Shown: in pieces, positions 5,309 to 59,070 of the stretch
Layout: each line of letters starts with the position of its first letter
How positions within the stretch are numbered: the stretch's first letter is position 1
Virus record (IMG/VR): IMGVR_UViG_3300029985_000017
Span: 1-64,000 of that record
Strand: one strand, 5' to 3'
DNA: 64,000 bases
DNA from: a virus
Notes under the pieces: generated by a model
What the model was told of the DNA's origin: nothing
Databases searched by the model: none
Seen by the model: only the letters and a program-made list of their open reading frames with translations
Made by a program: the position numbers and the translations under genes

Positions 5309-5385
5309 GCACGGTGGTCGGGGCTGGTTGCTCCAATGGGTCTTATAAGCCTATGACTCAGGTTCAATTCCTGAGCCGTGTACCA
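5309..5385 (+). tRNA. tRNA-Ile(UAU) with encoded CCA and atypical D-arm
   Basis: Acceptor GCACGGT/GCCGTGT-A-CCA; anticodon loop CTTATAA; T-arm TCAGG-TTCAATT-CCTGA. Confidence 0.8.
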
Positions 5386-25119: not shown

Positions 25120-25974
25120 TTATTTAAGCAGGTGACTAATACTGTTAACGTTGACTTTGCTGCCCAGATAAAATGCGTTAATTGCATCTCTATCAGATTT
25201 TTTAAGACTAGGATCTGCTGTCTTAGCCTTAAGAATTTCATGGATTTCCTTATCAGAAAGCTTCTTTTCTTCAGTGTGCGCTTCCGATTTTTGGATAACG
25301 TCCAATGAATTGATTGCTTTACCTTGAGGCACTGTCTTTTTAGCAAGTGCCGTCAAGAACTCCTTAATTGCTGCTTTTTCAGCTTTTTCAGCTGCTAATT
25401 CAGACTTAAGAAGTTCCATTTCTGTGTTTTCTGATTTTTCCATTTGCATTCCTTCTGCCTTACTAGCTGGTGATTTAGCACCAGGACCGTCCTTAGGCGC
25501 ACAAGCAGACTCTTCGCCACCACTTTTGTGGCCTGCATCTCCCATGTCCTTAGGCTTTTCGGCCTTTTCCATCTCGGCTGGCTTTTCTTCAGATTTACCC
25601 ATACACTTTTGAATACAACCATGATGAGCAGCTAGTTCACCTTTTGACATTGAGCGATACATTTTTTCCATGTGCTCCATGTCTTCGGCATCGTAGTCAT
25701 GGCCTTGATGCTCTTCGCCTTCTTTGCCATGCTCTTCATGTGATTCTTTACCTTCTTCATGATGCTCTTCAGAACTGTGTTCCTTGGCTTCATGTTTAGG
25801 TTCTTCTTTATGTTCAGGCTTTTCTTCGTGCTCTTTATGCTCTTCTTTATGGTCTTTTTCACCATCTTCAGATTTAGCAAGAGAGCTAGATTCTGACTTA
25901 GCAAGCTGAGAGGTAAACGCTTCTTCTACCTGAGCGATAAGATTTGCGACATCTTTTTCGGTATAACGTTGCAT
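25120..25974 (-). CDS. scaffold/core protein
   Basis: Charged His/Glu-rich protein directly upstream of MCP with nine hydrophobic-x-K(S/A/G)(E/D) motifs. Confidence 0.7.
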   Translation of the reverse strand: MQRYTEKDVANLIAQVEEAFTSQLAKSESSSLAKSEDGEKDHKEEHKEHEEKPEHKEEPKHEAKEHSSEEHHEEGKESHEEHGKEGEEHQGHDYDAEDMEHMEKMYRSMSKGELAAHHGCIQKCMGKSEEKPAEMEKAEKPKDMGDAGHKSGGEESACAPKDGPGAKSPASKAEGMQMEKSENTEMELLKSELAAEKAEKAAIKEFLTALAKKTVPQGKAINSLDVIQKSEAHTEEKKLSDKEIHEILKAKTADPSLKKSDRDAINAFYLGSKVNVNSISHLLK

Positions 25975-27384: not shown

Positions 27385-29226
27385 ATGGCTTTATCCCAAA
27401 ACACCGTTCTATATCTTCAAGACGCTCTTACTGACGTAGCTGCTGGTAATGAATTGGCAAATGCAATCAACAATCGTTTGGTCCTTTCTACCAACACTTT
27501 CAATAGGTTAGTAGCAGCTCTTACAAACCCTGCTGCAGCAGCTGATTTTCAAGCTGCTATGTTGGGCCAATACATCCTTACCCCTACCGATATTCAATTT
27601 CTCATAAGTGGATTTGATTGCACAAGAAATCCTGATATGCTGGCAGATATTTTAGCTAACATGCCTGTATCACCTAATACTTTTCCATTGCCTCCACGAA
27701 ATGTGACGATGCCCGCTGGTTTTACCATCTCACCTTCTTATGTAGGACCTTCTCAGCAACTTCTCGCAGCTCTTACTCTTCCAGCTGGCAGCACCTTTCC
27801 AAATTTCGGTCCCGGCGCTTACTTTATTGTTTCTACTGCTGGAAATACTAATCAGTATGATGTTTGGTATAATGTGACTGGCGGTACTAACACTAATCCA
27901 GCTCCTATCGGATTTACCGGCATCGAAGTTACTATTGGTGCAAGCGATTCGGCAGCTACTGTTGCAACTAAAACCAATACAGCTTTGGCAGCTCTTGCAG
28001 CAGCCAGCACTTCTGTAACTGGCGCAGTAGTTACTATTGCTCCTACCACCGTTCCTTCTGCAGCAGTTGCCATTCCTACGTTTACTCCTTCTGCTGGAAC
28101 GTATGGGAGCACTCAAACGGTAGCCATTAGCTCTGTTACTCCTGGAACTAGCATCTATTACACCACCGATGGATCTACCCCTTCTACTTCAAGCACAGCC
28201 TATTCAACGCCAATTACTGTTAGCGCTAGCCAACAAGTTAAAGCTATTGCCGTTAAAACTGGTTTTGCTAACTCTACTATTGGAACCGCTGCTTTTATTA
28301 TCGGCGGCTCTACGGTTGCAACTCCTACTTTCTCCCCAGTTGCTGGAACTTACTCTGGAACCCAATCGGTTACGGTTAGTTCTTTGACTGCTGGCGCAGC
28401 TTTTTATTACACATTGAATGGATCAACTCCTACTACGGGAAGTACTCTTTATACTGGCCCAATCTCTGTAAATCAAAGTGAAACAGTTAAAGTTTTGGCA
28501 ACCCATGCAGGTCTTACCAATTCTACAGTAGCTTCTGCAGCTTATACTATTACGGCTATCGGCCCAGCTCTCCCAAGTTTGGGTGCAGCAGCTACGTACA
28601 GGATTCTGTCTGAAGCTGGTATTAGTACTACGGCTGGAACGGCTATTACAGGAAATATTGCTGTAAGCCCTATAGCTCATACGGCGATTACTGGATTTAC
28701 GTATACGCCAAATCTATCAGCAACTTTTGGTACAGCTACTCAAGTATCTGGAGGAGTATATACCCCAGACAATCTATCGCCTACTCCAGCAAATTTGACC
28801 ACTGCAGTTGCGAACATGGGAACGGCATATACTAATGCTCAGGGACTTACGTCTCCTACCCAGCTAAATCCTGGATCAGGAGCTTTGGGTGGCCTTACAC
28901 TTACTGGCGGTCTTTATAAGCTAACAGTACCGACCTCTATCGCTGGAACACTCACCTTAAGCGGTGGACCTAGCGATACTTGGGTATTCCAAATGTCATC
29001 CACGTTCACTATGGCGACATCTGCACAGATCGTTATGAGCGGTGGAGCTTTGGCATCAAATGTTTACTGGGTTGCTGCTGGAGCCATTACCTTGGGAGTT
29101 TCCTCTAGCTTCAGTGGTATCGCTCTTAGTGCCACTAGCATTGCGGTTCAAACGTCTGCAACGGTACACGGTCAACTTTTTGCTCAGACAGCTGTTACCC
29201 TTGACGATAACGCAATCGGTAACTAA
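27385..29226 (+). CDS. late protein with two Fn3-associated/CHB_HEX_C-like domains and a C-terminal DUF3494 ice-binding domain
   Basis: ATPTFSP.AGTY...YYT.DGSTP x2; LG.AA.Y.IL...GI...GNI.VSP, TWVFQ, NVYW, GQLFAQTAVTLD. Confidence 0.88.
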   Translation: MALSQNTVLYLQDALTDVAAGNELANAINNRLVLSTNTFNRLVAALTNPAAAADFQAAMLGQYILTPTDIQFLISGFDCTRNPDMLADILANMPVSPNTFPLPPRNVTMPAGFTISPSYVGPSQQLLAALTLPAGSTFPNFGPGAYFIVSTAGNTNQYDVWYNVTGGTNTNPAPIGFTGIEVTIGASDSAATVATKTNTALAALAAASTSVTGAVVTIAPTTVPSAAVAIPTFTPSAGTYGSTQTVAISSVTPGTSIYYTTDGSTPSTSSTAYSTPITVSASQQVKAIAVKTGFANSTIGTAAFIIGGSTVATPTFSPVAGTYSGTQSVTVSSLTAGAAFYYTLNGSTPTTGSTLYTGPISVNQSETVKVLATHAGLTNSTVASAAYTITAIGPALPSLGAAATYRILSEAGISTTAGTAITGNIAVSPIAHTAITGFTYTPNLSATFGTATQVSGGVYTPDNLSPTPANLTTAVANMGTAYTNAQGLTSPTQLNPGSGALGGLTLTGGLYKLTVPTSIAGTLTLSGGPSDTWVFQMSSTFTMATSAQIVMSGGALASNVYWVAAGAITLGVSSSFSGIALSATSIAVQTSATVHGQLFAQTAVTLDDNAIGN

Positions 29227-30541: not shown

Positions 30542-31393
30542 TTGGCTGATTATACCCAATCTCGAAGTTTTAAAACTGCCACTTATCCGGTCCATGCCAT
30601 CCAAACTTCTGGATTGCTTAGACGTGTGGAACCATTTCTTACTCCGGAATTATTTCATAGTAGATATCTAAAAGGTATTCCAATTATATTTCCTGAGCAA
30701 CGATTCACACCGGACGAACTCAAAGACCGTATCATGATGGCAATGAATGAAACTGAAGCTCAAATCGGAACTACAGTTACGAGAGAAGAATTTGTAGACA
30801 AACTTCCATTTGATTGGTCACTTTATAAAAGTTTTATTCATATTAAACCAAGGCATTCTCCTATTCTAAGTTTAGAAAGCTTGGCTATTGTTGCTTCAAA
30901 TGATGAGATTATTTTTCAAGTCCCAAGTGTTTGGTGTGATATGGCCAACGCATCTATTGGACAGATTAATGTTATACCACTTCTTGCAGCTTTTGGTGCA
31001 ACTAATGCAAGTGGAACTCCTATAACTGCACTTAACCAAGGTGCTGGCATTGCCTTTCTAGCGATTTGGGGTGCCTCTGGCGCTACTACACAAGTACCAA
31101 GTTATTGGCAAGTGACCTATTCAAGTGGACTTTCCAATACAGAAGGACAAGTTCCAGTTATAGTAAACCAACTTATTGGAACTAATGCCGCTATTAATAT
31201 TATTTCTCAAATTGCTCAAATGTTTTTGTATACCTCTCAAGCTCAAAGTCAAGATGGATTATCTCAGTCTTCTTCTCTTCTTGGCCCTCGTTCTTTTCAA
31301 CTTCGTTTAGAAGAACTAATTAAAAATCGTGATGAATTAATAGCTAAAATTAAAGGTATATTTGCCAAGAAATATGTAATTGGGGAGTACTAA
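30542..31393 (+). CDS. head-tail adaptor/neck protein
   Basis: TTG start after AGGAG; V.Y.SG..., SQS.DGLSQS motif typical of myovirus neck proteins. Confidence 0.65.
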   Translation: MADYTQSRSFKTATYPVHAIQTSGLLRRVEPFLTPELFHSRYLKGIPIIFPEQRFTPDELKDRIMMAMNETEAQIGTTVTREEFVDKLPFDWSLYKSFIHIKPRHSPILSLESLAIVASNDEIIFQVPSVWCDMANASIGQINVIPLLAAFGATNASGTPITALNQGAGIAFLAIWGASGATTQVPSYWQVTYSSGLSNTEGQVPVIVNQLIGTNAAINIISQIAQMFLYTSQAQSQDGLSQSSSLLGPRSFQLRLEELIKNRDELIAKIKGIFAKKYVIGEY

Positions 31394-33021
31394 TGTCTCT
31401 TCGTAAAAGTCTTTTAGCAGCTTTAAGATACGATTCTCTTCAGAAGGCCGAAAAAGCTAAATTAGGAGAAGGTGTACACGATATATACAAAGAGCGTGCA
31501 GCTAAAGGTGGAGATATTCTCTGGTATGCCACTGTAAAGGGACAAAAAGAGTTAACACCCGGAATACCCTTACATATGTCTTTAAAAGTATTTGAAGATA
31601 AAAAAGACATGGATTTAGATAAAATTAAAGAAAAAATAAAAAAATTCGATATAAAAACTCCTAAACCAGAAAAATTGAATTTTAAAACAACTATTTTTAC
31701 ATCTGAACGAGATGGCAAAAAATATTATATGTTGTTAATTAGTGGAACAGATAAAACTTATTCTGATTTTTACGAAGCATTTAAACATACTGGAACTGTT
31801 TATAAAAAGTTTATGCCTCATATCACTATTGACAAAGGATTATACGATAAAATTAATAAAGAAGGTTTAAAACCAGAAGAAATTACTTTTAGTGATCTCA
31901 GTATTGAAGCAGGAGCAGGAAACACCATTCATTCTTTTGAAAAATCTGAAGGTTTAAATAAATCTGAAAATGCTTCTATTCCTACAGCGCATATTCCAGT
32001 TCACCATAATGAATTTCACCAGCATTTAGGAAATGCCATCACAAATAACTCTAAAGTTAAAGAGTTTGTCCATCATTATCAACCCCATGAATATTCTAAA
32101 ATGAAAACTTTTTTACATCCTGATAAAAAAAGCGGATTTGCAGTTAAACCAGATGGAGATATAGTTAGTGTATTCAGTACCGAAAAGGGTCGGGGAGATC
32201 AAATTGTACAGCATGCAGTTAAAGCGGGTGGCAATAAATTAGATGCTTTTGATGGCTATTTACCTAAACTGTATGCTAAACATGGATTTAAAGAAACACA
32301 CAGAGAAAAGAATTGGACTCCTGGTGGTCCTGATGTAGTTTATATGAAATTGCACCACAATGATATTAAAAAATCTGAAGAAAGTTCTATTATTAAAAAT
32401 AAATATAATGAAAAATTGAATAAATCAGAAAAACAAATTAATCCCGGTGATTATGGTAATGTAAAACCTCATATTGGTCATAAAGAAATGAAAAATATGG
32501 GTAGAAACTATAAAACTCTAGATTTCCATCCAAAACAAAGCATCCTTCATAGAAAACATTCAGAAGCGGCTAAAACAAAAGGTGATCATAATTTATCAGA
32601 AAAACATGCCAAAATGGCTCAAATGCACGATCATTATGACACAGCCAATCATTTTGGACCACATTCAACAGAACATTATAATGATAGAAGAAATGCTTTA
32701 AAAGAACATACAGATAAAGCCAAAAAACTTCATATAGAATTGAGTAAATCTGAATTTTTTCAGAAATCTGAAGCTCTTTTTTCTATTATCGTCAAAGAAA
32801 CTATCTCTTTAAATCCAGATTTATTTGAGCACAAAAAAGCACTTAGACTTAATGGTGAAGATTTTACACATTATCTTCAAGACAATCCTGATCTTAAAGA
32901 AATAGCTTTAAAAAAGCATGAAGATCGCGCTAAACATCATTTTGGAGATGATCTTATTTTAATCAATGTAGCTTTGAAAAAAGGTATTCAAGAAGCATAT
33001 AAGGCAAAAAGAGGAAAATAA
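31393..33021 (+). CDS. modular internal head protein: 2H phosphoesterase, GNAT and His-rich module
   Basis: HMS (H61) and HIT (H143); IVSVFS..KGRG...LDAFDGYLPKLY..HGF; separated by K-SE motifs. Confidence 0.75.
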   Translation: MSLRKSLLAALRYDSLQKAEKAKLGEGVHDIYKERAAKGGDILWYATVKGQKELTPGIPLHMSLKVFEDKKDMDLDKIKEKIKKFDIKTPKPEKLNFKTTIFTSERDGKKYYMLLISGTDKTYSDFYEAFKHTGTVYKKFMPHITIDKGLYDKINKEGLKPEEITFSDLSIEAGAGNTIHSFEKSEGLNKSENASIPTAHIPVHHNEFHQHLGNAITNNSKVKEFVHHYQPHEYSKMKTFLHPDKKSGFAVKPDGDIVSVFSTEKGRGDQIVQHAVKAGGNKLDAFDGYLPKLYAKHGFKETHREKNWTPGGPDVVYMKLHHNDIKKSEESSIIKNKYNEKLNKSEKQINPGDYGNVKPHIGHKEMKNMGRNYKTLDFHPKQSILHRKHSEAAKTKGDHNLSEKHAKMAQMHDHYDTANHFGPHSTEHYNDRRNALKEHTDKAKKLHIELSKSEFFQKSEALFSIIVKETISLNPDLFEHKKALRLNGEDFTHYLQDNPDLKEIALKKHEDRAKHHFGDDLILINVALKKGIQEAYKAKRGK

Positions 33022-35250: not shown

Positions 35251-36180
35251 ATGAAAAAGAATGCTAAGACCTTCCTAGATAAAACTTTAGGAAGTGACTT
35301 TTTAGAGTCGCTTGGCACTTCTTTGTCAAAATCTGAAGTATATAAACAAGGTACTAGAACTGTTACAGATACAGATGATCTATTCCAAGGTTTGCAAATT
35401 GTACCTAGGGCATTGTTGAGTTTATTGGTTCGTGAATTATCCCCCATGCAAATTGGGGAAACTAAAGAAATTAGAATTCCTGGAAAAGAAGACACTATAG
35501 TTTCAGCTACAAAACATGAACGTGATTCATATTCTGGACAAGTAATACAAAATAATGTTAAAATAAATGATTTTTTGCATCGCTCACTACCTGGTCTTGG
35601 ATTAGTCTTAATGACCATGCTAGAATTGTATGATTTTGAAGATCTTGAAAAAAAGCCTTCTATTCATCAAGATAAACAAGCACAAGTTCAAAAAATAATT
35701 GACGATCGAATGCAACTCCATTCCCTTGTTAATCAGGTTGTAGATGGTAAAATGCTACAACGTGACGCCATAAATCAGTTACTTATGAGTAAATTGACAC
35801 AATTATTGCATGAACATGAACAAATTAAAGAAGACCATAAAGAAATTATGGCTGAAGCACCTAAAGAAAAGTCTCCAGTAGTTATAGTTTTAAAACCACA
35901 AAAAAAGTCTCTACCTCTTGCCAGTTTCGTAGAAAATAGAAAAAAGAAATTAACAAAGAAAGAATTTTTGGTAGATATTTGTAAGGGAGAAACAAGAGAA
36001 TGCCCAGATTGTGGGCATACTGTTTTTGATGGTTCCGGCCTCTCAAGCTGCATATGTTTTGGCGACTCTAAAAAAGTTTTCTTAAAAAAGACTGAAACTG
36101 GCATTAAGTTATCTTTTAGCCGCCAATGGGATGCAGAGAATATCTCTATGCTATTAGAAGTCTTGAGGAGCAAGTCATGA
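35251..36180 (+). CDS. probable head-associated protein with C-terminal zinc ribbon
   Basis: LSKSE, ICKGE; CPDC...CIC. Confidence 0.6.
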   Translation: MKKNAKTFLDKTLGSDFLESLGTSLSKSEVYKQGTRTVTDTDDLFQGLQIVPRALLSLLVRELSPMQIGETKEIRIPGKEDTIVSATKHERDSYSGQVIQNNVKINDFLHRSLPGLGLVLMTMLELYDFEDLEKKPSIHQDKQAQVQKIIDDRMQLHSLVNQVVDGKMLQRDAINQLLMSKLTQLLHEHEQIKEDHKEIMAEAPKEKSPVVIVLKPQKKSLPLASFVENRKKKLTKKEFLVDICKGETRECPDCGHTVFDGSGLSSCICFGDSKKVFLKKTETGIKLSFSRQWDAENISMLLEVLRSKS

Positions 36181-36677
36181 AAACTTGCAAAACCTGTAAA
36201 TTAGAAAAAGAAGATAGTTCTTATAGAATTTCTAAAAAAACAAAGAAACTTTTAAATCCTTGTTTTGACTGTAGAAAAAACATAAAAGAAGAATATAACA
36301 AAACTCATTTAGAAATTAATAATGCGACAAAAGATGCTTGGAAATTAAGAAATATAGATAAAGTAAGAGCCGCGAAAAAAAAATGGAAAGAAGAAAATAT
36401 AGGGAAAGTAAAAGCCGATAGGGCACGTAGAAAATTTCGCATAGAACAGGCAACACCTAAATGGCTTAGTTCTCAACAAATAGAAGCCATGGAATTCTTT
36501 TATTTATGGGCTGATCTTAGAAGTAAAAGCGGTGTAAAATATCATGTAGATCATATTATACCCATAGCAGGAAAAGATGTTTGCGGTCTCAATGTACCGT
36601 GGAATTTAGAAACTCTTAAAGAAGAAGAAAATCTTAAAAAAAGAAATAAATTGCTTTGGTGGAGGACAAATGGATAA
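36177..36677 (+). CDS. HNH homing endonuclease
   Basis: CKTC..CFDC; HVDHIIP...CGLNVPWNL...N..K.N; start after GAGGAG. Confidence 0.9.
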   Translation: MKTCKTCKLEKEDSSYRISKKTKKLLNPCFDCRKNIKEEYNKTHLEINNATKDAWKLRNIDKVRAAKKKWKEENIGKVKADRARRKFRIEQATPKWLSSQQIEAMEFFYLWADLRSKSGVKYHVDHIIPIAGKDVCGLNVPWNLETLKEEENLKKRNKLLWWRTNG

Positions 36678-38376
36678 TTCTAATACGTTCTTCGTATCTT
36701 TCGATGCAGATGACGCTGGCAGAAGAATAGGGCAAGCTATTTTAAATGATGACCCAGATTCTCTTAGGGATGCTTCACAAAAAATAGATCACGGTAACGA
36801 AATCGTAGCACAATGGGCACAAAAATATAATGGCGTACAGTACTCCTCTGGAGGAGATCAGGGTGTATGGTTAGTTCCAGTTGAAGCATTGCAGGAACTA
36901 GAATCCCTACGTAAAGACTATGAATTTGCTACTGGAATGACCATTTCAATAGGTGTTGCTGATACTCTTAGTGGCTCAGGAAGAAGTTTATTAGTCGCTA
37001 AAGTTAAAGGTAAAAACCAAATAGTTTTTTATGGTCCAGAAATAGAAAAAGAAATTCAACAAATTACTGAGAATGTTAGATCTGGACACGGTTCTTCAGA
37101 GGAACAAAAATTAGCAGAATCATATATAGAACCTACTCAGCATTCAGAGGCTTCCGATGATGATGAAGGCGTTGGACATGACCAAGTTCTTCCTACCGGT
37201 GCCGATGCTGCTCAAAATGAGCCTACTTTGTGTGAACCACCAAAAGACGATAATAATCGCGGCTATGATTCTGGATATAAAAATTCCGATGTAGAAGAGC
37301 GTAGGGATTCATATCAAGCTCAAGATCTAACGCCTCCTATTATTAGGAAACCAAACCTTACTCCTAAGCCTCGAGTGGAAGAAAGTTTTTCAACCGATAT
37401 ACCTGAAAGCGATAGAGTTATGAATAATGACCTACCTGATCCAAAAGATATGCCAGCAAAAGACTTAAAACCAGCCCCAAAAGACTATCATGGACAAGCG
37501 GAAGGTGCTCCCCCAGCTCCAGAAGGTTTGGCACAACCTATGCAAGGTAAGCCTAGCGACCTTAAATATAATGGCAATGACGAAAAGGGAATTCAAGAAC
37601 CCGACATGCCTAGGGAAAATGCTACTACGGATGAAGCCGAACAAACCGAAGAAAGTGATATGCTGGGAGATGATAAACATTGCCCTAGCTGCACCTGTGG
37701 CGCTCATGGGGATTCTGCAGAAGACACTTTAGATCAACACGTAGACAATGCTCAAGATTTCGCAGACGCTATTGGCAATGAACAAGAAGAAGATAGTGCT
37801 GAAGACACACTAGATGCTCATGTTAGTAATGCTAGCGAAATGAATGATGACATGGATGAAAACGGTGTTAGTCGTCCTGCTGATTACGATCAAAGAAATG
37901 AAGATATGGGTCTATCAGAAGAAGATGCTGATGACTCTAATTTAAACGACGTATTTAAAGATGGTTTAGATGCTCATGCAGACAGTATTCAACGTGAAAA
38001 AGTTGTTAATATGGTTGGTGAAGCTCTAGAAGCTTTCAAAGGCCAGAAAGCCATATTGGACAAAGCTAAAGCACAAGCCCCAGAACTTTATGATGCTTGT
38101 ATAGCCATGCTAAGAAGTATGATCGAACTTTGCTCGTTAGCTGGTATTGATGAAGGTCAAGCTGAGCAAGAAGTAAACGAAATCGAAGGCCAAAGTAAAG
38201 CTCCCGAAGAAGCTTCTGGTGAAGAAGGCGAAGGGTTTATACCTGAATCTGAAGATAATGGAGCTGAATCTGAAGAAGCCCCTGAATCAGAAGAAGGCGA
38301 ATCATGCCCTACTTGCGGAACACCACATGAAAAAGAAGCAGCTCCAGGAGGGGCTGCTCCATTCCCAAAAAAGTAA
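36670..38376 (+). CDS. mCpol (Cas10 palm/GGDEF-like) domain protein with long acidic region
   Basis: FVSFDADDAGRRI...SGGDQ...TISIGV...L.AK..GKNQI in the first 125 aa. Confidence 0.75.
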   Translation: MDNSNTFFVSFDADDAGRRIGQAILNDDPDSLRDASQKIDHGNEIVAQWAQKYNGVQYSSGGDQGVWLVPVEALQELESLRKDYEFATGMTISIGVADTLSGSGRSLLVAKVKGKNQIVFYGPEIEKEIQQITENVRSGHGSSEEQKLAESYIEPTQHSEASDDDEGVGHDQVLPTGADAAQNEPTLCEPPKDDNNRGYDSGYKNSDVEERRDSYQAQDLTPPIIRKPNLTPKPRVEESFSTDIPESDRVMNNDLPDPKDMPAKDLKPAPKDYHGQAEGAPPAPEGLAQPMQGKPSDLKYNGNDEKGIQEPDMPRENATTDEAEQTEESDMLGDDKHCPSCTCGAHGDSAEDTLDQHVDNAQDFADAIGNEQEEDSAEDTLDAHVSNASEMNDDMDENGVSRPADYDQRNEDMGLSEEDADDSNLNDVFKDGLDAHADSIQREKVVNMVGEALEAFKGQKAILDKAKAQAPELYDACIAMLRSMIELCSLAGIDEGQAEQEVNEIEGQSKAPEEASGEEGEGFIPESEDNGAESEEAPESEEGESCPTCGTPHEKEAAPGGAAPFPKK

Positions 38377-38403
38377 CGCCAGGGTCTGAAGAGGCTGCTG
38401 GCG
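38346..38403 (+). promoter_or_regulatory. programmed -1 ribosomal frameshift signal
   Basis: AGGAGG 38346-51; in-frame A_AAA_AAG 38367-73; hairpin CGCCAG-GGTCT/AGGCT-G-CTGGCG 38377-403. Confidence 0.7.
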
Positions 38404-38597
38404 GCGGCGTGGGATCAATAAAAAAGTTACCTACTAAGAATAGTACCCCACATATTGCCAAAGAAACTACGCCAGTTGGTGGAATTAATGCTAAGGGCCA
38501 AAAACGTTATAAAGATCCTACAACTGGTAAGGACGCCTATATCAACATGAAAAATGGTATGGTAATGGGACCTAGGGGTATTCCTGTTAAGGGCTAA
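38370..38597 (+). CDS. -1 frame C-terminal extension of the mCpol protein (includes track ORF 38409-38597)
   Basis: Frame open from the slippery site to TAA 38595-97. Confidence 0.65.
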   Translation, partial: KVTPGSEEAAGGGVGSIKKLPTKNSTPHIAKETTPVGGINAKGQKRYKDPTTGKDAYINMKNGMVMGPRGIPVKG

Positions 38598-38598
38598 T

Positions 38599-39465
38599 AT
38601 GATTAATATCAAATTAGATCCTTCATCACTTTTAGAAGCATGTAAAGAATCTTACAATGAAGTTAAGAAAGCCTTAACCAAATCTGTGACTAAACTTGCT
38701 AGTGCTGCAGAGACCCATTTGATCGAATTAACAAAAGAAGAATTAAATTCTCATCAATATAAAATGTTTGTGGGTGGAGACGATATGAAAAATATCGAAT
38801 TAACATCGCCAGATCCAAATGTTCATATTCTAACCATTAAAAATAAAGCGGTTCTTATAGATAATGGCGAAAGAATGGACATGAAAACCGATGATTGGCT
38901 TTTTAGTAGCTCCAAAACTAAAACTGGTAAAAAGGGTAAATATTTAGTTATTCCTTTTCAGCATGCTGAAAAAAATTCTAAATCTGAATCTGCAACTAAT
39001 AGACTTAAAATAGAACTTACCAATAGAATAAAAGAAGAACTAGATTTTCAAAATAGAAAAAGAAAAGCTAAAAAGCAACGCTCTATAAGCGTTGGTGGAA
39101 TAGAACGTTACCAAGAAGACTCTATGGGTCACAAAAAAGGCGAAATCATAGAAGGTAAACTTCATGAGTTTAACATCTTTGGCAGCAAGAAAAAGTCTCA
39201 TTGGTCAGATATGCCTTTAACCAGAGTAGGTGTTTATCAAAAGATAAAAAGAGATGATCAAGGAAATCCTGTCACGGATAAAAATGGCAAAGTAAAAGCT
39301 ATTCGTTCTTGGATGACCTTTAGAACTGCTTCAGAAGGGTCCCCAGATAAATTTTGGTATCCAGCACCTAAAACCAAAGATTTTTTAGCTAGAACTGGTG
39401 ATTGGGTTGAAAAAGAATTTTATGAAAACATAGTCCCAAATATCTTAAAAGAGTGGAAGGACTAA
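38599..39465 (+). CDS. neck/tail-completion-like basic protein
   Basis: YLVIPF.H and MTFRT.S....W..P motifs. Confidence 0.55.
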   Translation: MINIKLDPSSLLEACKESYNEVKKALTKSVTKLASAAETHLIELTKEELNSHQYKMFVGGDDMKNIELTSPDPNVHILTIKNKAVLIDNGERMDMKTDDWLFSSSKTKTGKKGKYLVIPFQHAEKNSKSESATNRLKIELTNRIKEELDFQNRKRKAKKQRSISVGGIERYQEDSMGHKKGEIIEGKLHEFNIFGSKKKSHWSDMPLTRVGVYQKIKRDDQGNPVTDKNGKVKAIRSWMTFRTASEGSPDKFWYPAPKTKDFLARTGDWVEKEFYENIVPNILKEWKD

Positions 39466-39468
39466 TTT

Positions 39469-40497
39469 ATGGGCGGTATATTTCAAACAGATGTTTTATT
39501 AAAAACGATATTAGAAGAATGGTTAGAAGACATTAAAAATAATCTATGGCTTTTAGATCATATTTTAGAAGATTTTGTTGATAGTCCATTACTTAGAACT
39601 AAATATGGACAAAAACAAATTCAGGCTGCTAAAGAGTACTTTACCAACAATAATGTAAATATATTTAATCAATTTGTTAAAGATAAAGATAAATTTCCAT
39701 GCATAGTATTAACTCTAGGCTCTTCAAATGAAGTTCAAGAGATGCGTACACTTGGAGATATAGATACACCTACAATTAATTTTTTACCACCAAATCTGGT
39801 GGGACAGAAGATACCTTATGTAGTTCCTCCATTTATTCCTTCTAGCTACGAGGCATCTACCGGTATAGTAACAGCCCCCATTGGTGTGGATATAGAGCCA
39901 GTGACTGCAGGCATGATTTTACTCAACCCAACTACTGGAACGGGTACTCCAGTTTTAAGTATTAATGGCCAAGAAATTTATGTTCAACCAAATGTACAAT
40001 TGGATACTAGTCAACTTGGAGTTGTACCACAGTACAGATTTTTCCAATCTAGACTAGGAAGAAGTTTCTTCGAAGAAAACTGGAATATTACGATCGCCAC
40101 AAATGATCCCCAATCTCTTCTATGGCTGTGGTCAATCGTGACCTATGGACTTTTAAGATATAGGGAGTACATGGAGCACAATGGGTTATTAGAAACACAT
40201 TTTAATAGTACAGATATTTTTAATCCCGAATTCTCTAATGCTGGTGCGGAAGAAATTTATTGTCGTCAAATAACCATGGCTGGCAAAGTATACAATAACT
40301 TTATCAGAGGACTGCATAGAAAAATTGAATCGGTAATACTTAGAGATACTAATCCTGCAGCCATCACTTTATCGGATCCATCAGGTTATGTAGGCGGAAT
40401 TAAATTCGTTTCAAATCAAGAGACTCCACCTGCACAGCAGAATCAAACTAATTGGTTTACCGTAACTCAAGCTGAAGATGAGGCAAATGAAGATTAA
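39469..40497 (+). CDS. tail terminator/sheath-stabiliser-like protein
   Basis: FPCI.L.L, IYCR.I motifs; upstream of sheath. Confidence 0.5.
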   Translation: MGGIFQTDVLLKTILEEWLEDIKNNLWLLDHILEDFVDSPLLRTKYGQKQIQAAKEYFTNNNVNIFNQFVKDKDKFPCIVLTLGSSNEVQEMRTLGDIDTPTINFLPPNLVGQKIPYVVPPFIPSSYEASTGIVTAPIGVDIEPVTAGMILLNPTTGTGTPVLSINGQEIYVQPNVQLDTSQLGVVPQYRFFQSRLGRSFFEENWNITIATNDPQSLLWLWSIVTYGLLRYREYMEHNGLLETHFNSTDIFNPEFSNAGAEEIYCRQITMAGKVYNNFIRGLHRKIESVILRDTNPAAITLSDPSGYVGGIKFVSNQETPPAQQNQTNWFTVTQAEDEANED

Positions 40498-40517: not shown

Positions 40518-40919
40518 ATGCCATATAAATCAGATTCACAGCGCAGATGGGCTCACACCGAAGCAGGTAAAAAAGCTTTAGGCGGTGAGGCCAATGTACA
40601 TGAATGGGATGAGGCCACTAAAGGCAAAAAACTCCCTGAAAAAGTCAAAAAATCTGAAAATCTTACAAAATCCGTGCCAACTCCCCCAAAACTAGGCTCT
40701 ACCCTTGGTTCTACTTTAAGTGCTCCCCAAAATCAACCAAAAGATATTTCTAAGGCCGGTAAGCAAAACGTAACCGCTAAAATATCTAAGCCCAAAAAGC
40801 CAGGTGACGCTTTTGCTCCTCCCAGTGTCTTTTTTGGTAAATCCGAAGATTTTAATGGTCCTAAACACCCAAGTACGCGAAGACTATGGGATTTTATAAC
40901 AAAAAAACATAAAAAGTAA
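40518..40919 (+). CDS. basic internal head protein candidate
   Basis: MPYKS.SQRRW...EWD..T.GKKLPEKV; VKKSE, FGKSE. Confidence 0.65.
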   Translation: MPYKSDSQRRWAHTEAGKKALGGEANVHEWDEATKGKKLPEKVKKSENLTKSVPTPPKLGSTLGSTLSAPQNQPKDISKAGKQNVTAKISKPKKPGDAFAPPSVFFGKSEDFNGPKHPSTRRLWDFITKKHKK

Positions 40920-40987: not shown

Positions 40988-42607
40988 ATGGCAGATGACA
41001 ACAAAAAGCTATTTACACCTCGTGAAGCTGCGCAAGCTGTGTTAGCTAAGACCTATGAGCTATTGTCTAAATCTGAAACTTTAAATAAATACGAGACAGA
41101 AAATCGTAAAGCACCCGGCGTTAAATACGGTAAAATTGAAAAAGATCAAAAACCTATTGAACGTGATTATCCAGAGTATGAAGTAAAGTCTGCGAGTTTT
41201 AAAGACTCTTCAGGAAAACGTCTTGAAAGGCAAGTTTCTCCAAGTGGTAATCCAAAAGAGGAAGCTGAAGGAAATAATAACGTAGACGGCATGGAACCAC
41301 GTTATGAATTTAAAGATAAAGTTAAGGGCGATCTAGCCAAAGAAAATGCCCAGCATATGGTTAAGTCTCAGTCAGGCATGCATACGGTTACATATAAAAT
41401 GCACAAAGCCGAAGATAAAGCTATGCCAAAACCCGATTTGGGTAAAGCTGAAACTGGACATGAAAAAGATGCTGAATTAGTGAATAACAATTATAAAAAA
41501 GAAAGAGCCCCAAACTTAAAAATGCCTAAACATAGAGAGACTAAACCAAAACTATCCCATGAACAAATGATGAATGTTAGCTGGGAGAAGCATAATTTGG
41601 CGGGCAATGTGCATAAAGAACATGCAAAAAAGTATCCAGAAAGTATTCCAGAAGCTAAGGCTATCAATGACAAACATAAAAAAGCTGCAGAGATGCATCA
41701 TGCATATTCTACAGCCAAAGCTAGTTTTCCAGATTACGATTATGAAAAATCTAATAGAGTAAAAAAAGAAGCTACTGAAAAAGCAAAAAAGCTTCATGAG
41801 GATCTTTCATCGATGGAAACTAGTGGCCATAAGGTTGGCCATGCGATAGAACATAAAAAATCAGAATCCAATATTTGCGATCTACATAAATCTGGCGAAC
41901 ATCAAATGCCTAAGCCCCATGCTTCTCATGAAGATATGATGAAGATGCCAAAAAATGCGCATGAAGAAAAAAGAGATTTTCATAATTCCGCTGAATCTAA
42001 AGAAGACAAGCTTCCACAAAATCCAGATAAAGAAGCTGATGCCGAACTTGGTGAAAAAGTAGAGCACGACGTAGAAGATCATTTTAAAGAAAATCAGGAA
42101 GCCGAAGCTAAAGAAGGACATGAACTCATGGCTAAACCAGAGAATAAATCTGAAAGTGAAACTGAAAAGTCCGTTATTCCTCGTTTAGTTCTTTCTGCTA
42201 AACTAAGCAAGTTTATGGAGCATATGCATTCTAAACGTAAAAATGCCGAAGCTCAATCGCCACAAGCCGTTGGCCATGAAGCCACTGACGCTCCGGCTCC
42301 TAGATCTACTGAAGCTGGACAGCCAATTGAAAAACGTGAAGGAGAAAGAGGAATACATCTTCCTCATTCTGAAACGGATATCGCTCCAGGATCTAAATTA
42401 AAGGGCGATATGGGCCAAAGCGGTGTGGGCTCTGATGTTCGCGATATGAAAAGGGATATAAAGCATCTTTCAAATAAAAAAACTAAGGGCGCGGATCGCA
42501 GAGAAACCATAGAACATCATGATATTAATAGAAATAGGGCAATAAATGAGCACAAACAAGTTCTTAGTGATATGAAAGCCATGCCGAAACCAAAGCTTCC
42601 AGGATAA
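40988..42607 (+). CDS. modular His/Lys/Glu-rich internal head protein
   Basis: LSKSE, MHKAE, LGKAE; modules shared with the 31393 protein and the prohead protease. Confidence 0.65.
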   Translation: MADDNKKLFTPREAAQAVLAKTYELLSKSETLNKYETENRKAPGVKYGKIEKDQKPIERDYPEYEVKSASFKDSSGKRLERQVSPSGNPKEEAEGNNNVDGMEPRYEFKDKVKGDLAKENAQHMVKSQSGMHTVTYKMHKAEDKAMPKPDLGKAETGHEKDAELVNNNYKKERAPNLKMPKHRETKPKLSHEQMMNVSWEKHNLAGNVHKEHAKKYPESIPEAKAINDKHKKAAEMHHAYSTAKASFPDYDYEKSNRVKKEATEKAKKLHEDLSSMETSGHKVGHAIEHKKSESNICDLHKSGEHQMPKPHASHEDMMKMPKNAHEEKRDFHNSAESKEDKLPQNPDKEADAELGEKVEHDVEDHFKENQEAEAKEGHELMAKPENKSESETEKSVIPRLVLSAKLSKFMEHMHSKRKNAEAQSPQAVGHEATDAPAPRSTEAGQPIEKREGERGIHLPHSETDIAPGSKLKGDMGQSGVGSDVRDMKRDIKHLSNKKTKGADRRETIEHHDINRNRAINEHKQVLSDMKAMPKPKLPG

Positions 42608-57303: not shown

Positions 57304-59070
57304 TCAGAATCTTTCATTGGCTTCATTCACATTAGACATAGGATCATTAGCGTTTTTCATAAATTCATTGTCTGCTCTAGCTTCTGACCTTTCAAATTGA
57401 TCATCCCTAGGAGCTACTACAATGCCTCCCAAAGTACCTAAAACACCAGCAATACTTACGGAATTAGTTAAACTCTCTTCTACTGCTTTTGTAGAGTCGA
57501 ATAGCCCAAGTTCCATGGCATCCCCATAGACTTCATTTTCTACATCGTAAACCAAATCTGGATTACCTATTAGAGTTGTAACCACCTCTTTGATTTCATC
57601 GACATTGTGACCAGAATTATCTAGCAGAATTCTAGGTAGACTCAACAAAGCTTCAGTTAGCACAATTCTTGCTGGATCATCCTCTGAGAGTTTTTCAGCA
57701 AGTTTAATCGCCATATCAATGGCAATCCTAGTTCCACCAGGTAAACAGCCATGCTTAATAGCCGAACGCATAGCCATAGTCGCGTCTTCAATTCTATCAT
57801 GCTTTTCTTTAAGATCTGCACCGGAACCTGCATAAACTGTAAGTTTAGCAATACCACATGTCAATAGAGCAACACGTTCTTGCAACCAGATAGTTTCAGC
57901 TTTAGATTCTGAATTTTTAATCATTTTTTTAAGATCATCAGCACGAACTTCAACATTTAGTGCGTCTGGTTCTCCAACAACAGTAGATCTATACCTATGA
58001 CTTTCAAAATAATCCATACCATGGCCTAGATCATTAATATTAGCACCAGAGAGTTGATCTTTTAATCCGAATACCTTAGCCCCTGTAAAAGCGGCCAAGT
58101 CATATAGGAAAGCTTGTTGTGAATTGGTGAATTGCCTCATAGGAGTTTTAAGAGGCATAATATTGATAGTTGAACTGTTAACAAAATTAAGAACTAGGGT
58201 AGTTAAAACCTGATCTGAAAATCCATGCGCCACAATAATTGTGTTCTTAAAATTTTCATCTCCGCTGGCATATCTTTCGCCAACCTCATTCAAAATAGGA
58301 GTGATTTGAATCAAATCAGTAATCATACCATCAAACAAAATGAACAGTGGTTTTTCAAGATAGGTTCTTTGGTTACCGATATCGTTAATAAAAACATTAC
58401 TGAATTTCCCAAGGTCTTCGTGCCCACTATAGATAGGAAGGCCGTCTACACGATCAATTTTATAACCTTCTTCTCCCGGAAGTTCTTTAATAGTAACGTG
58501 GCTAGAATCACCAAAACCTACAAGTTCAAAACACTCATAAACTTTATTAGCCATTTCTTCATCGCCATTGGCACTAATCTTGCCAACTTTTTTAAGAAGC
58601 TCTTGATTGTCGGCGGTGATTTGAATTGCTCTTTCACGAATATACGGCACTAGGATTTCACTAACTGCTTTTTTAATTTTACGAACAGCTTTTTGAGGAG
58701 AATATTTAGGATTTTCTTTACAATACTCGAAAAGATTTTTAATAAGTTGATGGGCTAGAATTGTGGTTGTAGTCGTTCCATCCCCAGCGCCTTCGCCTAC
58801 GCGCTGAGCGCAATCCCTAGCTGTCTCAATGATAACGTGGTCAATTGAATCAATTGCACCTAGATTGGAGAATACAGAGGTACCATCTTTAGAAACCCTA
58901 TTAGACACTCCAGGAAGATCACTTTCAATCAAAACCGTTTTTCCACCGGGACCGAGAGTGCCTCCAACGATGTCGGCTATCCTACTGGTAATATTAAGAA
59001 CTTTCCTTTTGATAAGTTCACGATCCGAGATAAAGATTTTAGGGGTTGTCTTAGCTTTTCTGTGGGACAT
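57304..59070 (-). CDS. groEL: phage chaperonin, GroEL-like
   Basis: TLGPGG, SKDG, GDGTTT, ISANGD, EK.DRIEDA, G.LPG. Confidence 0.95.
   Translation of the reverse strand: MSHRKAKTTPKIFISDRELIKRKVLNITSRIADIVGGTLGPGGKTVLIESDLPGVSNRVSKDGTSVFSNLGAIDSIDHVIIETARDCAQRVGEGAGDGTTTTTILAHQLIKNLFEYCKENPKYSPQKAVRKIKKAVSEILVPYIRERAIQITADNQELLKKVGKISANGDEEMANKVYECFELVGFGDSSHVTIKELPGEEGYKIDRVDGLPIYSGHEDLGKFSNVFINDIGNQRTYLEKPLFILFDGMITDLIQITPILNEVGERYASGDENFKNTIIVAHGFSDQVLTTLVLNFVNSSTINIMPLKTPMRQFTNSQQAFLYDLAAFTGAKVFGLKDQLSGANINDLGHGMDYFESHRYRSTVVGEPDALNVEVRADDLKKMIKNSESKAETIWLQERVALLTCGIAKLTVYAGSGADLKEKHDRIEDATMAMRSAIKHGCLPGGTRIAIDMAIKLAEKLSEDDPARIVLTEALLSLPRILLDNSGHNVDEIKEVVTTLIGNPDLVYDVENEVYGDAMELGLFDSTKAVEESLTNSVSIAGVLGTLGGIVVAPRDDQFERSEARADNEFMKNANDPMSNVNEANERF

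Follow-up and report, generated by a model that had tools for sequence, protein, structure and literature searches.

A phage-encoded mCpol domain on a conserved modular carrier in the structural gene module of Mx1-like phages

The stretch of DNA analysed here, referred to as the window, comprises the first 64 kb (positions 1 to 64,000) of the IMG/VR virus record IMGVR_UViG_3300029985_000017, which is 163,229 bp long and has a CheckV completeness of 99 %. The 163-kb record is an uncultured relative of Myxococcus phage Mx1, i.e. an Mx1-like myovirus and lytic-type phage, and the gene content of the window includes a tail fibre, a sheath, a large terminase and a portal. The subject of this work is an open reading frame (ORF) of the plus strand at 36670-38376, whose zero-frame translation of 568 amino acids (AA) contains the segments FVSFDADDAGRRI, SSGGDQG, TISIGV and AKVKGKN. 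Its architecture is shared by 12 close homologues, which are 508-593 AA long. The N-terminus of the encoded protein was confirmed to be a full-length minimal CRISPR polymerase (mCpol) domain, and the remainder appears to be a conserved carrier, in which an acidic disordered linker is followed by a helical hairpin and a basic tail.

The assignment of the domain is based on a profile match, the predicted fold, sequence alignment and residue conservation. Residues 8-121 (36691-37032, plus strand) match the Pfam family mCpol (PF18182) over the complete model (positions 1-114 of 114) with scores of 34.6 bits (complete protein) and 38.8 bits (domain alone), above the gathering cut-off of 26.4 bits, and a six-frame search places the match at the same coordinates. 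The preliminary description of this DNA, which was made from the sequence alone, had recognised an mCpol/Cas10-palm cyclase domain at this position and had proposed a comparison with hidden Markov models to verify it. In this comparison only mCpol exceeded its cut-off, since the Cas10 palm profile Cas10-Cmr2_palm2 (PF22335) reached 20.4 bits against a cut-off of 27, and the Pfam family GGDEF (PF00990) had no match to the protein at E<=1. No PHROGs family was found for the protein or its domain, and PADLOC returned no match for the protein.

A missing palm fold had been named beforehand as evidence that would speak against the assignment. An AlphaFold2 model built on the 12 homologues predicts a palm, with a predicted local distance difference test (pLDDT) value of >90 for residues 1-150. 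The top six matches of this model to structures in the PDB, obtained with Foldseek, are all OptS/mCpol entries (9pd0, 9mnr and 9nwn), with template modelling (TM) scores relative to the target of 0.84-0.88, root-mean-square deviations (rmsd) of 1.5-2.1 Å over 115-119 columns and an E-value of 2e-7. The next fold matches after the OptS structures are GGDEF and Cas10 palms. Two of the OptS structures, 9mnr and 9nwn, are also retrieved directly from the sequence by phmmer (E 2e-3).

The catalytic motifs of the palm are D12/D14 (DxD) and G61-G62-D63-Q64. In the phmmer alignment to 9mnr and 9nwn, D12 and D63 align with Asp6 and Asp57, which form the active site of KpOptS (PMC12657218), and S36 aligns with S30, one of the two residues for ATP selectivity of that enzyme (PMC12657218). 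To assess the conservation of these positions, relatives were collected with an exhaustive HMMER search of 1.84 billion cluster representatives, which yielded 785 clusters (50 % identity) at E<=1e-3, of which 548 remain at E<=1e-10. All residue and motif counts for the family given here refer to the best 150 of the 785 clusters, most of which carry mCpol at or near the N-terminus of a protein of 300-1100 residues. Among these 150 representatives, K111 and G95 are invariant, D14 and D63 are each kept in 149, D12 in 141 and the serine at S36 in 131. The combined pattern DxD..GGD[EQ] is present in 133, with GGDE in 118 and GGDQ in the 15 members of the subclade to which the window protein belongs; another seven have NxD..SGDE. 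In contrast to these conserved positions, the residue aligned with N34 of KpOptS varies between D, N and E across the family.

GGDQ is a subclade variant within a family that mostly has GGDE. The preliminary description had suspected that the motifs DADD and GGDQ might mark an inactive enzyme. This suspicion is not supported, because KpOptS, which is active, itself has A-A-D-G in place of G-G-D-Q, with a glycine opposite Q64, and because the residues corresponding to its two active-site aspartates are present. A lack of conservation of the catalytic aspartates among homologues, which had been considered a possible counterargument, is likewise not what the counts for D12, D14 and D63 indicate. 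To judge from these residues and from the predicted dimer described below, the domain looks like a working cyclase. Separately, three short family members of 295-446 AA (P0017, P0127 and P0154) align with the query palm over two separate stretches. In P0154, a second segment resembling a palm lies near residue 223 (LHGGDD), and both P0154 and P0017 align without the C-terminal tail of the carrier.

Structure prediction lends support to a homodimer formed by residues 1-155, with contacts through the catalytic hairpin. The predicted dimer has a score of 0.65, with 0.00 for the best of three controls, a result that may reflect likeness to the solved OptS dimers. For comparison, 20 of 30 proteins whose structures were solved as pairs of one chain reached this mark, as did one of 23 whose structures contain a single chain. 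Between the runs, at least 94 % of the contacts agree, with partner pLDDT values of at least 86, and the predicted interface comprises residues 17-40, 58-68 and 99-105, which include the GGD hairpin (58-64).

Downstream of the palm, the protein had been described as about 440 mostly acidic residues. The acidic nature is correct, as residues 131-568 contain 25 % D+E, have a net charge of -75 and an isoelectric point (pI) of 4.1, and are mostly predicted to be disordered apart from a helical hairpin, which the model places at residues 425-490; what had been missed is that this part is a conserved carrier with a tail that seems to be added by frameshifting. The palm is followed by helices at residues 123-153 (37036-37128, plus strand), which end in a conserved boundary motif, E-x-K-[LI]-x-E-x-Y-[LI]. 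Residues 156-424 (37135-37941, plus strand) form an acidic linker with 26 % D+E, which is predicted to be disordered and varies in length and sequence. In the window protein this linker has one CPSC pair (residue 338), with a CPTC at residue 546, and the linkers of relatives (P0003-P0005 and P0008-P0012; columns 190-300 of alignment A1) contain four to six D-C-P-Y-C repeats. These repeats may be zinc knuckles within an otherwise disordered acidic region. A conserved helical hairpin follows at residues 425-509 (37942-38196, plus strand), in which L453, P471 and Y474 are kept in at least 90 % of the representatives. Neither the hairpin nor the tail had a match among Pfam, PHROG or PDB sequences.

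The zero frame ends with a slippery heptamer, A_AAA_AAG (38367-38373, plus strand), which was read directly from the sequence and stands immediately before the TAA stop codon at 38374-38376. A shift into the -1 frame would add an extension of 74 residues with a pI of 10 (38373-38597, plus strand) and result in a long form of 642 AA. Across relatives, this tail is a conserved basic, glycine-rich segment of about 50-70 residues with the pattern K-x-G-K...G-K...G-x-V...G-x-P, and distant relatives, as well as Mx1, encode it in frame as their C-terminus. Of the related loci, 11 have the tail in frame, nine have it in the -1 frame and none in the +1 frame. Since it is never in the +1 frame, and since a zero-frame X_XXY_YYZ heptamer occurs together with a conserved -1 frame that is open to 38597, its addition fits a programmed -1 ribosomal frameshift of the dnaX type.

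The gene occupies the same slot in 23 IMG/VR loci of alignment A1, in nine loci of alignment A4, on two contigs of metagenome-assembled genomes (MAGs) and in Myxococcus phage Mx1. The order of genes is fixed and runs from the homologue of the gene at 35251 through the mCpol gene and the genes at 38599 and 39469 to the sheath gene, and it is kept even where the sheath is only 35 % identical. With this synteny, the mCpol gene belongs to the fixed core genes of Mx1-like phages. In bacteria and archaea the family is almost absent: two scans covering 185,579 of their species genomes yielded only two matches, both on short MAG contigs with the same phage synteny, and the scan made with alignment A4 detected no relative. 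All family members that could be located lie on phage contigs. A megablast search against cultured phages gave no match, and tblastn with three family members matched only Mx1, which is the only cultured phage with a gene for the mCpol carrier.

The carrier is combined with other enzymes in some relatives. Of the 42 longest or N-terminally extended members, nine contain a GNAT domain and five a DUF5661 domain, and NUDIX or DUF3293 occur in single members. An orthologue of 1770 AA in the same slot (L036:6165-11477) has mCpol at residues 10-122, several GNAT repeats and the conserved tail. A recurring ELAPDHDEE-LLLCPPGCHDQKIEKAI segment separates its GNAT repeats, and L035 contains a copy of this type that is truncated at the 5' end. 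The middle part of another member (P0130) is 46 % identical to a giant protein of Mx1 described as a 'NUDIX hydrolase'.

The preliminary description had located the mCpol gene of this phage among the virion genes, with no cognate effector, which agrees with its neighbours. Upstream lies a conserved gene for a head-cargo-type protein of 309 AA (35251-36180, plus strand) with a scaffold-type motif, LSKSE, at residue 25, for which the atlas gave no usable lead. The invariant downstream neighbour (38599-39465, plus strand) is probably a neck protein for head-tail joining, based on synteny and a structural match. Its model has a pLDDT of 78, and the best VIA match is the SaPI1 neck chain 9mu2_P (Z 9.8, rmsd 3.0, 103 of 109 residues), followed by a row with Z 7.4; Foldseek found no match for this model, so that the neck identity comes from VIA only. 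The next gene (39469-40497, plus strand) encodes a protein resembling a tail terminator or sheath stabiliser, with atlas features of 0.94 (SP10_terminator in 46 % of cluster members) and 0.83 (T4 gp15-like) and a match to phrog_1000. Its naming as a tail terminator is a lead only. Directly upstream of the mCpol gene, an HNH/endonuclease VII-like gene (36126-36677, plus strand; phrog_1035 and phrog_26577) overlaps the start of the mCpol gene by 8 nt. Because only L003 and L016 have it at this site, with L008 and L027 carrying it elsewhere, it behaves like a mobile homing endonuclease and is considered a sporadic insertion outside the mCpol system.

Further hints at the surroundings of the gene come from the motif h-x-K-[SAG]-E, which fits a head-protease site that would mark head-internal proteins. 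The motif occurs ten times in the minus-strand gene at 25120-25974, which is the scaffold of the phage, seven times in the gene at 31393-33021, three times at 40988-42607 and twice each at 40518-40919 and 35251-36180. It is absent from the sheath, the terminase, the mCpol protein and the large minus-strand ORFs. The motif-bearing genes at 35251, 40518 and 40988 flank the mCpol gene. Across the mCpol family the motif is three-fold enriched (129 observed, 43 expected), and in 32 of the 150 representatives it coincides exactly with the palm-domain end and reads Y-L-x-K-[SAG]-E, where the window protein has YIEPT. Therefore, the cyclase could be clipped off at this boundary in many relatives. Two other roles were considered for the window protein and rejected. 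A scaffold, suggested by an acidic protein in the head module, is already provided by the motif-rich gene at 25120-25974 on the other strand, and the mCpol gene lies beside probable neck genes. A tail-assembly chaperone, suggested by the frameshift, does not agree with a gene that is not located between tube and tape measure and is far too long.

Several other features of the window were recorded. A tail-fibre-like gene at 27385-29226 encodes two CHB_HEX_C/Fn3-associated repeats and a C-terminal ice-binding-like domain (PF11999, E 4e-58). A phage GroEL-like chaperonin is encoded on the minus strand at 57304-59070 (Cpn60_TCP1, E 4e-35), a tRNA-Ile with the anticodon TAT lies at 5309-5385, and a Mom-like gene is also present.

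Genes that would connect the mCpol gene to a known nucleotide-based immune system were searched for in the whole 163-kb genome. No match was found there for Cap15/S-2TMbeta (PF18153), SAVED (PF18145), the 2H families PF13563 and PF02834 or the Tad2-like sponge PF11195, and there is no cas gene, array or membrane effector near the mCpol gene. As there is no effector partner, no Cap15/S-2TMbeta or SAVED protein in the genome and no bacterial genome around it, the locus is not a Panoptes system. An Acb1-like enzyme had been proposed to be encoded 4 kb away, in the gene at 31393-33021. This proposal was not confirmed by sequence searches and is given no weight here. Two H-x-S/T motifs (LHMSL and PHITI) can be recognised by eye in the protein, but it matches no Pfam family at E<=1, 2H families included, and has no meaningful sequence match in the PDB; its middle part belongs to phrog_2563. 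As a separate observation, the proteins encoded at 31393-33021 and 40988-42607 are both K/E/H-rich, about 540 residues long and share helical C-terminal segments.

The explanation we favour, tentatively and with somewhat less than even confidence, is that the gene encodes a polyvalent-type effector of the virion module, in which the carrier ties a working mCpol dimer into the particle and the cyclic nucleotide disturbs the nucleotide immunity of the host early in infection. It would be a late protein of two parts, with the N-terminal 150 residues acting as a catalytically competent, homodimeric mCpol cyclase and the remainder as the carrier, to which a -1 ribosomal frameshift would add the tail in only a fraction of the chains. 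As a cargo of the polyvalent type, the protein would be anchored by its carrier in the particle, either inside the head or at the neck, and the cyclase would be on hand from the first moments of infection. Its substrates would be host nucleoside triphosphates, and its product, a cyclic di- or oligonucleotide, could disrupt the immune signalling of the host that relies on nucleotides, either by jamming sensors or by holding the effector of a Panoptes-type guard off. The analysis showed domain identity, fold, conservation of the catalytic residues, synteny, modularity of the carrier and the frame relation of the tail; the enzymatic activity and its product, the packaging in the virion and the target pathway are inferred.

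Several observations weigh against this explanation. The Mx1 orthologue (L025:12010-13416; OR576727.2, 33963-35369) is a protein of 468 AA without the catalytic residues, as D12 is replaced by S, D63 by A and K111 by Q, and it keeps the helical module, a QKSE motif and the in-frame tail. An orthologue of 481 AA in the same slot (L027:2508-3953) consists of a linker with Cys repeats, the hairpin and the tail, without mCpol and without any Pfam match. Since Mx1 has lost the active site and L027 the palm, and both have kept the carrier, the conserved core function may lie in the carrier and catalysis may be dispensable. The carrier thus persists without catalysis in two lineages, although the great majority of the family keeps an intact active site. 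These two losses, as well as the status of the gene as a core syntenic gene of a large phage clade, had been missed in the preliminary description, which is incomplete in this respect. In addition, the window protein contains no h-x-K-[SAG]-E motif and only a single enzymatic domain, so it is not visibly a polyprotein cut by the protease, and its Q64 stands where most relatives have E. Finally, if the phage also delivers a 2H phosphodiesterase, this enzyme could destroy the product of mCpol.

The persistence of the carrier without catalysis in Mx1 and L027 leads to a different explanation, in which the protein serves mainly in the structure or assembly of the head-neck region, with a functional carrier that is made in two lengths by frameshifting and a palm that serves as a dimerisation or nucleotide-binding module, so that catalysis is irrelevant. 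The constant position next to the probable neck gene, the conservation of the tail, either by frameshift or in frame, and the predicted dimer running through the palm are also consistent with it. However, the near-invariant D14, D63 and K111 and the predominance of DxD..GGD[EQ] form the pattern of an enzyme rather than that of a mere dimerisation module, and the addition of GNAT and NUDIX domains to the same carrier fits the delivery of cargo better than architecture. This explanation is considered unlikely, but it is the main rival of the favoured one. A further assumption, that an inactive palm acts only as a sponge sequestering host immune nucleotides, had been suggested in the preliminary description and could draw on the Q in place of E at the fourth motif position in this subclade. 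It is very improbable because the metal-binding aspartates, together with K111, are the most conserved residues; moreover, a single binding site in a protein of 568 AA would make a poor sponge, and the fourth position is not acidic in active KpOptS either.

If the domain is an active enzyme, the question arises which purpose its product could serve. The phage mCpol could resupply the decoy of Panoptes (2',3'-c-di-AMP, cA3 or similar), so that the guard stays off while a phage phosphodiesterase or sponges remove host signals. The closest solved relatives are Panoptes synthases, the serine for ATP specificity (S36) is mostly kept, a neighbouring gene has 2H-like H-x-S/T motifs, and the authors of the Panoptes study expect a phage 'anti-anti-anti-defence' of this kind (PMC12657218). 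Nevertheless, neither a 2H nor a Tad2 or other sponge family was detected by profile in the genome, and the co-occurrence with the 2H-like gene results from shared ancestry, so that it does not count as separate support. The Panoptes decoy is broken down by Acb1-type enzymes (PMC12657230); a phage that both produced and destroyed it would gain nothing, except if the two enzymes had different specificities. Since the residue aligned with N34 of KpOptS varies across the family, the products probably differ. Resupply of the decoy, although attractive, is rather improbable. Another possibility is that the nucleotide signals in host takeover or in the programme of the phage, e.g. for pili, motility, superinfection exclusion or late events, instead of counter-defence. 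Cyclic dinucleotides control pili, motility and similar processes in bacteria. An activation of responses against rival elements has also been raised by Iyer et al. 2017 (PMC5512222); however, no receptor domain was found in the phage in searches for SAVED and Cap15-type domains, and such a signal is regarded as quite improbable.

A more far-reaching version of this explanation can be formulated, to which we assign a low probability. Mx1-like phages might bring a working mCpol on a virion-anchored carrier, whose counterfeit 'all is well' nucleotide silences Panoptes-type guards or blocks CARF/SAVED sensors while other cargo destroys the host signals. If true, this would be the 'anti-anti-anti-defence' predicted by the Panoptes authors, and the largest natural reservoir of mCpol enzymes would be viral. 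Studies of mCpol have hitherto been confined to its role as the synthase in a bacterial guard, which turns the depletion of nucleotides by phages against them. A phage clade of 785 clusters with intact active sites in a module of particle genes suggests that phages may also write nucleotide messages and not only erase them. It is a concrete candidate for the next step in the arms race of nucleotide signalling, and its acidic linker, helical hairpin and putative frameshift tail constitute a previously undescribed modular carrier for interchangeable enzymes.

In full-text literature searches, mCpol appeared only in papers on the bacterial defence enzyme, no paper on a phage mCpol or on the virion proteomics of Mx1 was found, and a jumbo-phage survey does not mention mCpol. 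The mCpol domain and the delivery of enzymes as cargo are thus already known, whereas the literature searched contains no report of a phage mCpol clade with a conserved carrier of its own. A related concept is that of polyvalent proteins (Iyer, Burroughs, Anand, de Souza and Aravind 2017, PMC5512222), which are likewise phage proteins of the virion module with enzymatic domains of the conflict type. Rare GGDEF domains occur in such delivered proteins and were proposed to interfere with nucleotide responses of the host (PMC5512222), and mCpol is not among the domains listed in that work. Polyvalent proteins are defined by at least two unrelated effector domains. The window protein has only mCpol, whereas its relatives combine mCpol with GNAT, NUDIX, DUF5661 and DUF3293. 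Polyvalent proteins are also encoded with head or virion genes and delivered with the DNA; for the window protein, the position in the structural module is conserved. Its carrier and tail match no Pfam, PHROG or PDB entry searched.

At the level of single features, other known systems are comparable. GGDEF diguanylate cyclases and Cas10 palms have a homologous palm with a DxD and a GGD[DE] hairpin, but the phage protein has no HD domain, second palm or Cas partners. The heptamer A_AAA_AAG is the same as in E. coli dnaX, where it also leads to two products with a common N-terminus (tau and gamma); frameshifting truncates the product of dnaX, whereas here it would lengthen the protein by 74 residues. 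Two products sharing an N-terminus are likewise known from phage structural genes that are made in two lengths. Compared to Panoptes OptS (9mnr, 9pd0, 9nwn; PMC12657218, PMC12657230, PMC13577387), the protein described here is phage-encoded within a structural module, has no S-2TMbeta, CARF-TM or SAVED partner, carries an acidic carrier of about 450 residues with a probable frameshift tail, and is only about 24 % identical, with GGD[EQ] in place of AADG of KpOptS. Both share the same palm fold of about 115 residues, the active-site aspartates and the serine, and the symmetric homodimer through the catalytic hairpin that is known for OptS is likewise predicted for the phage domain.

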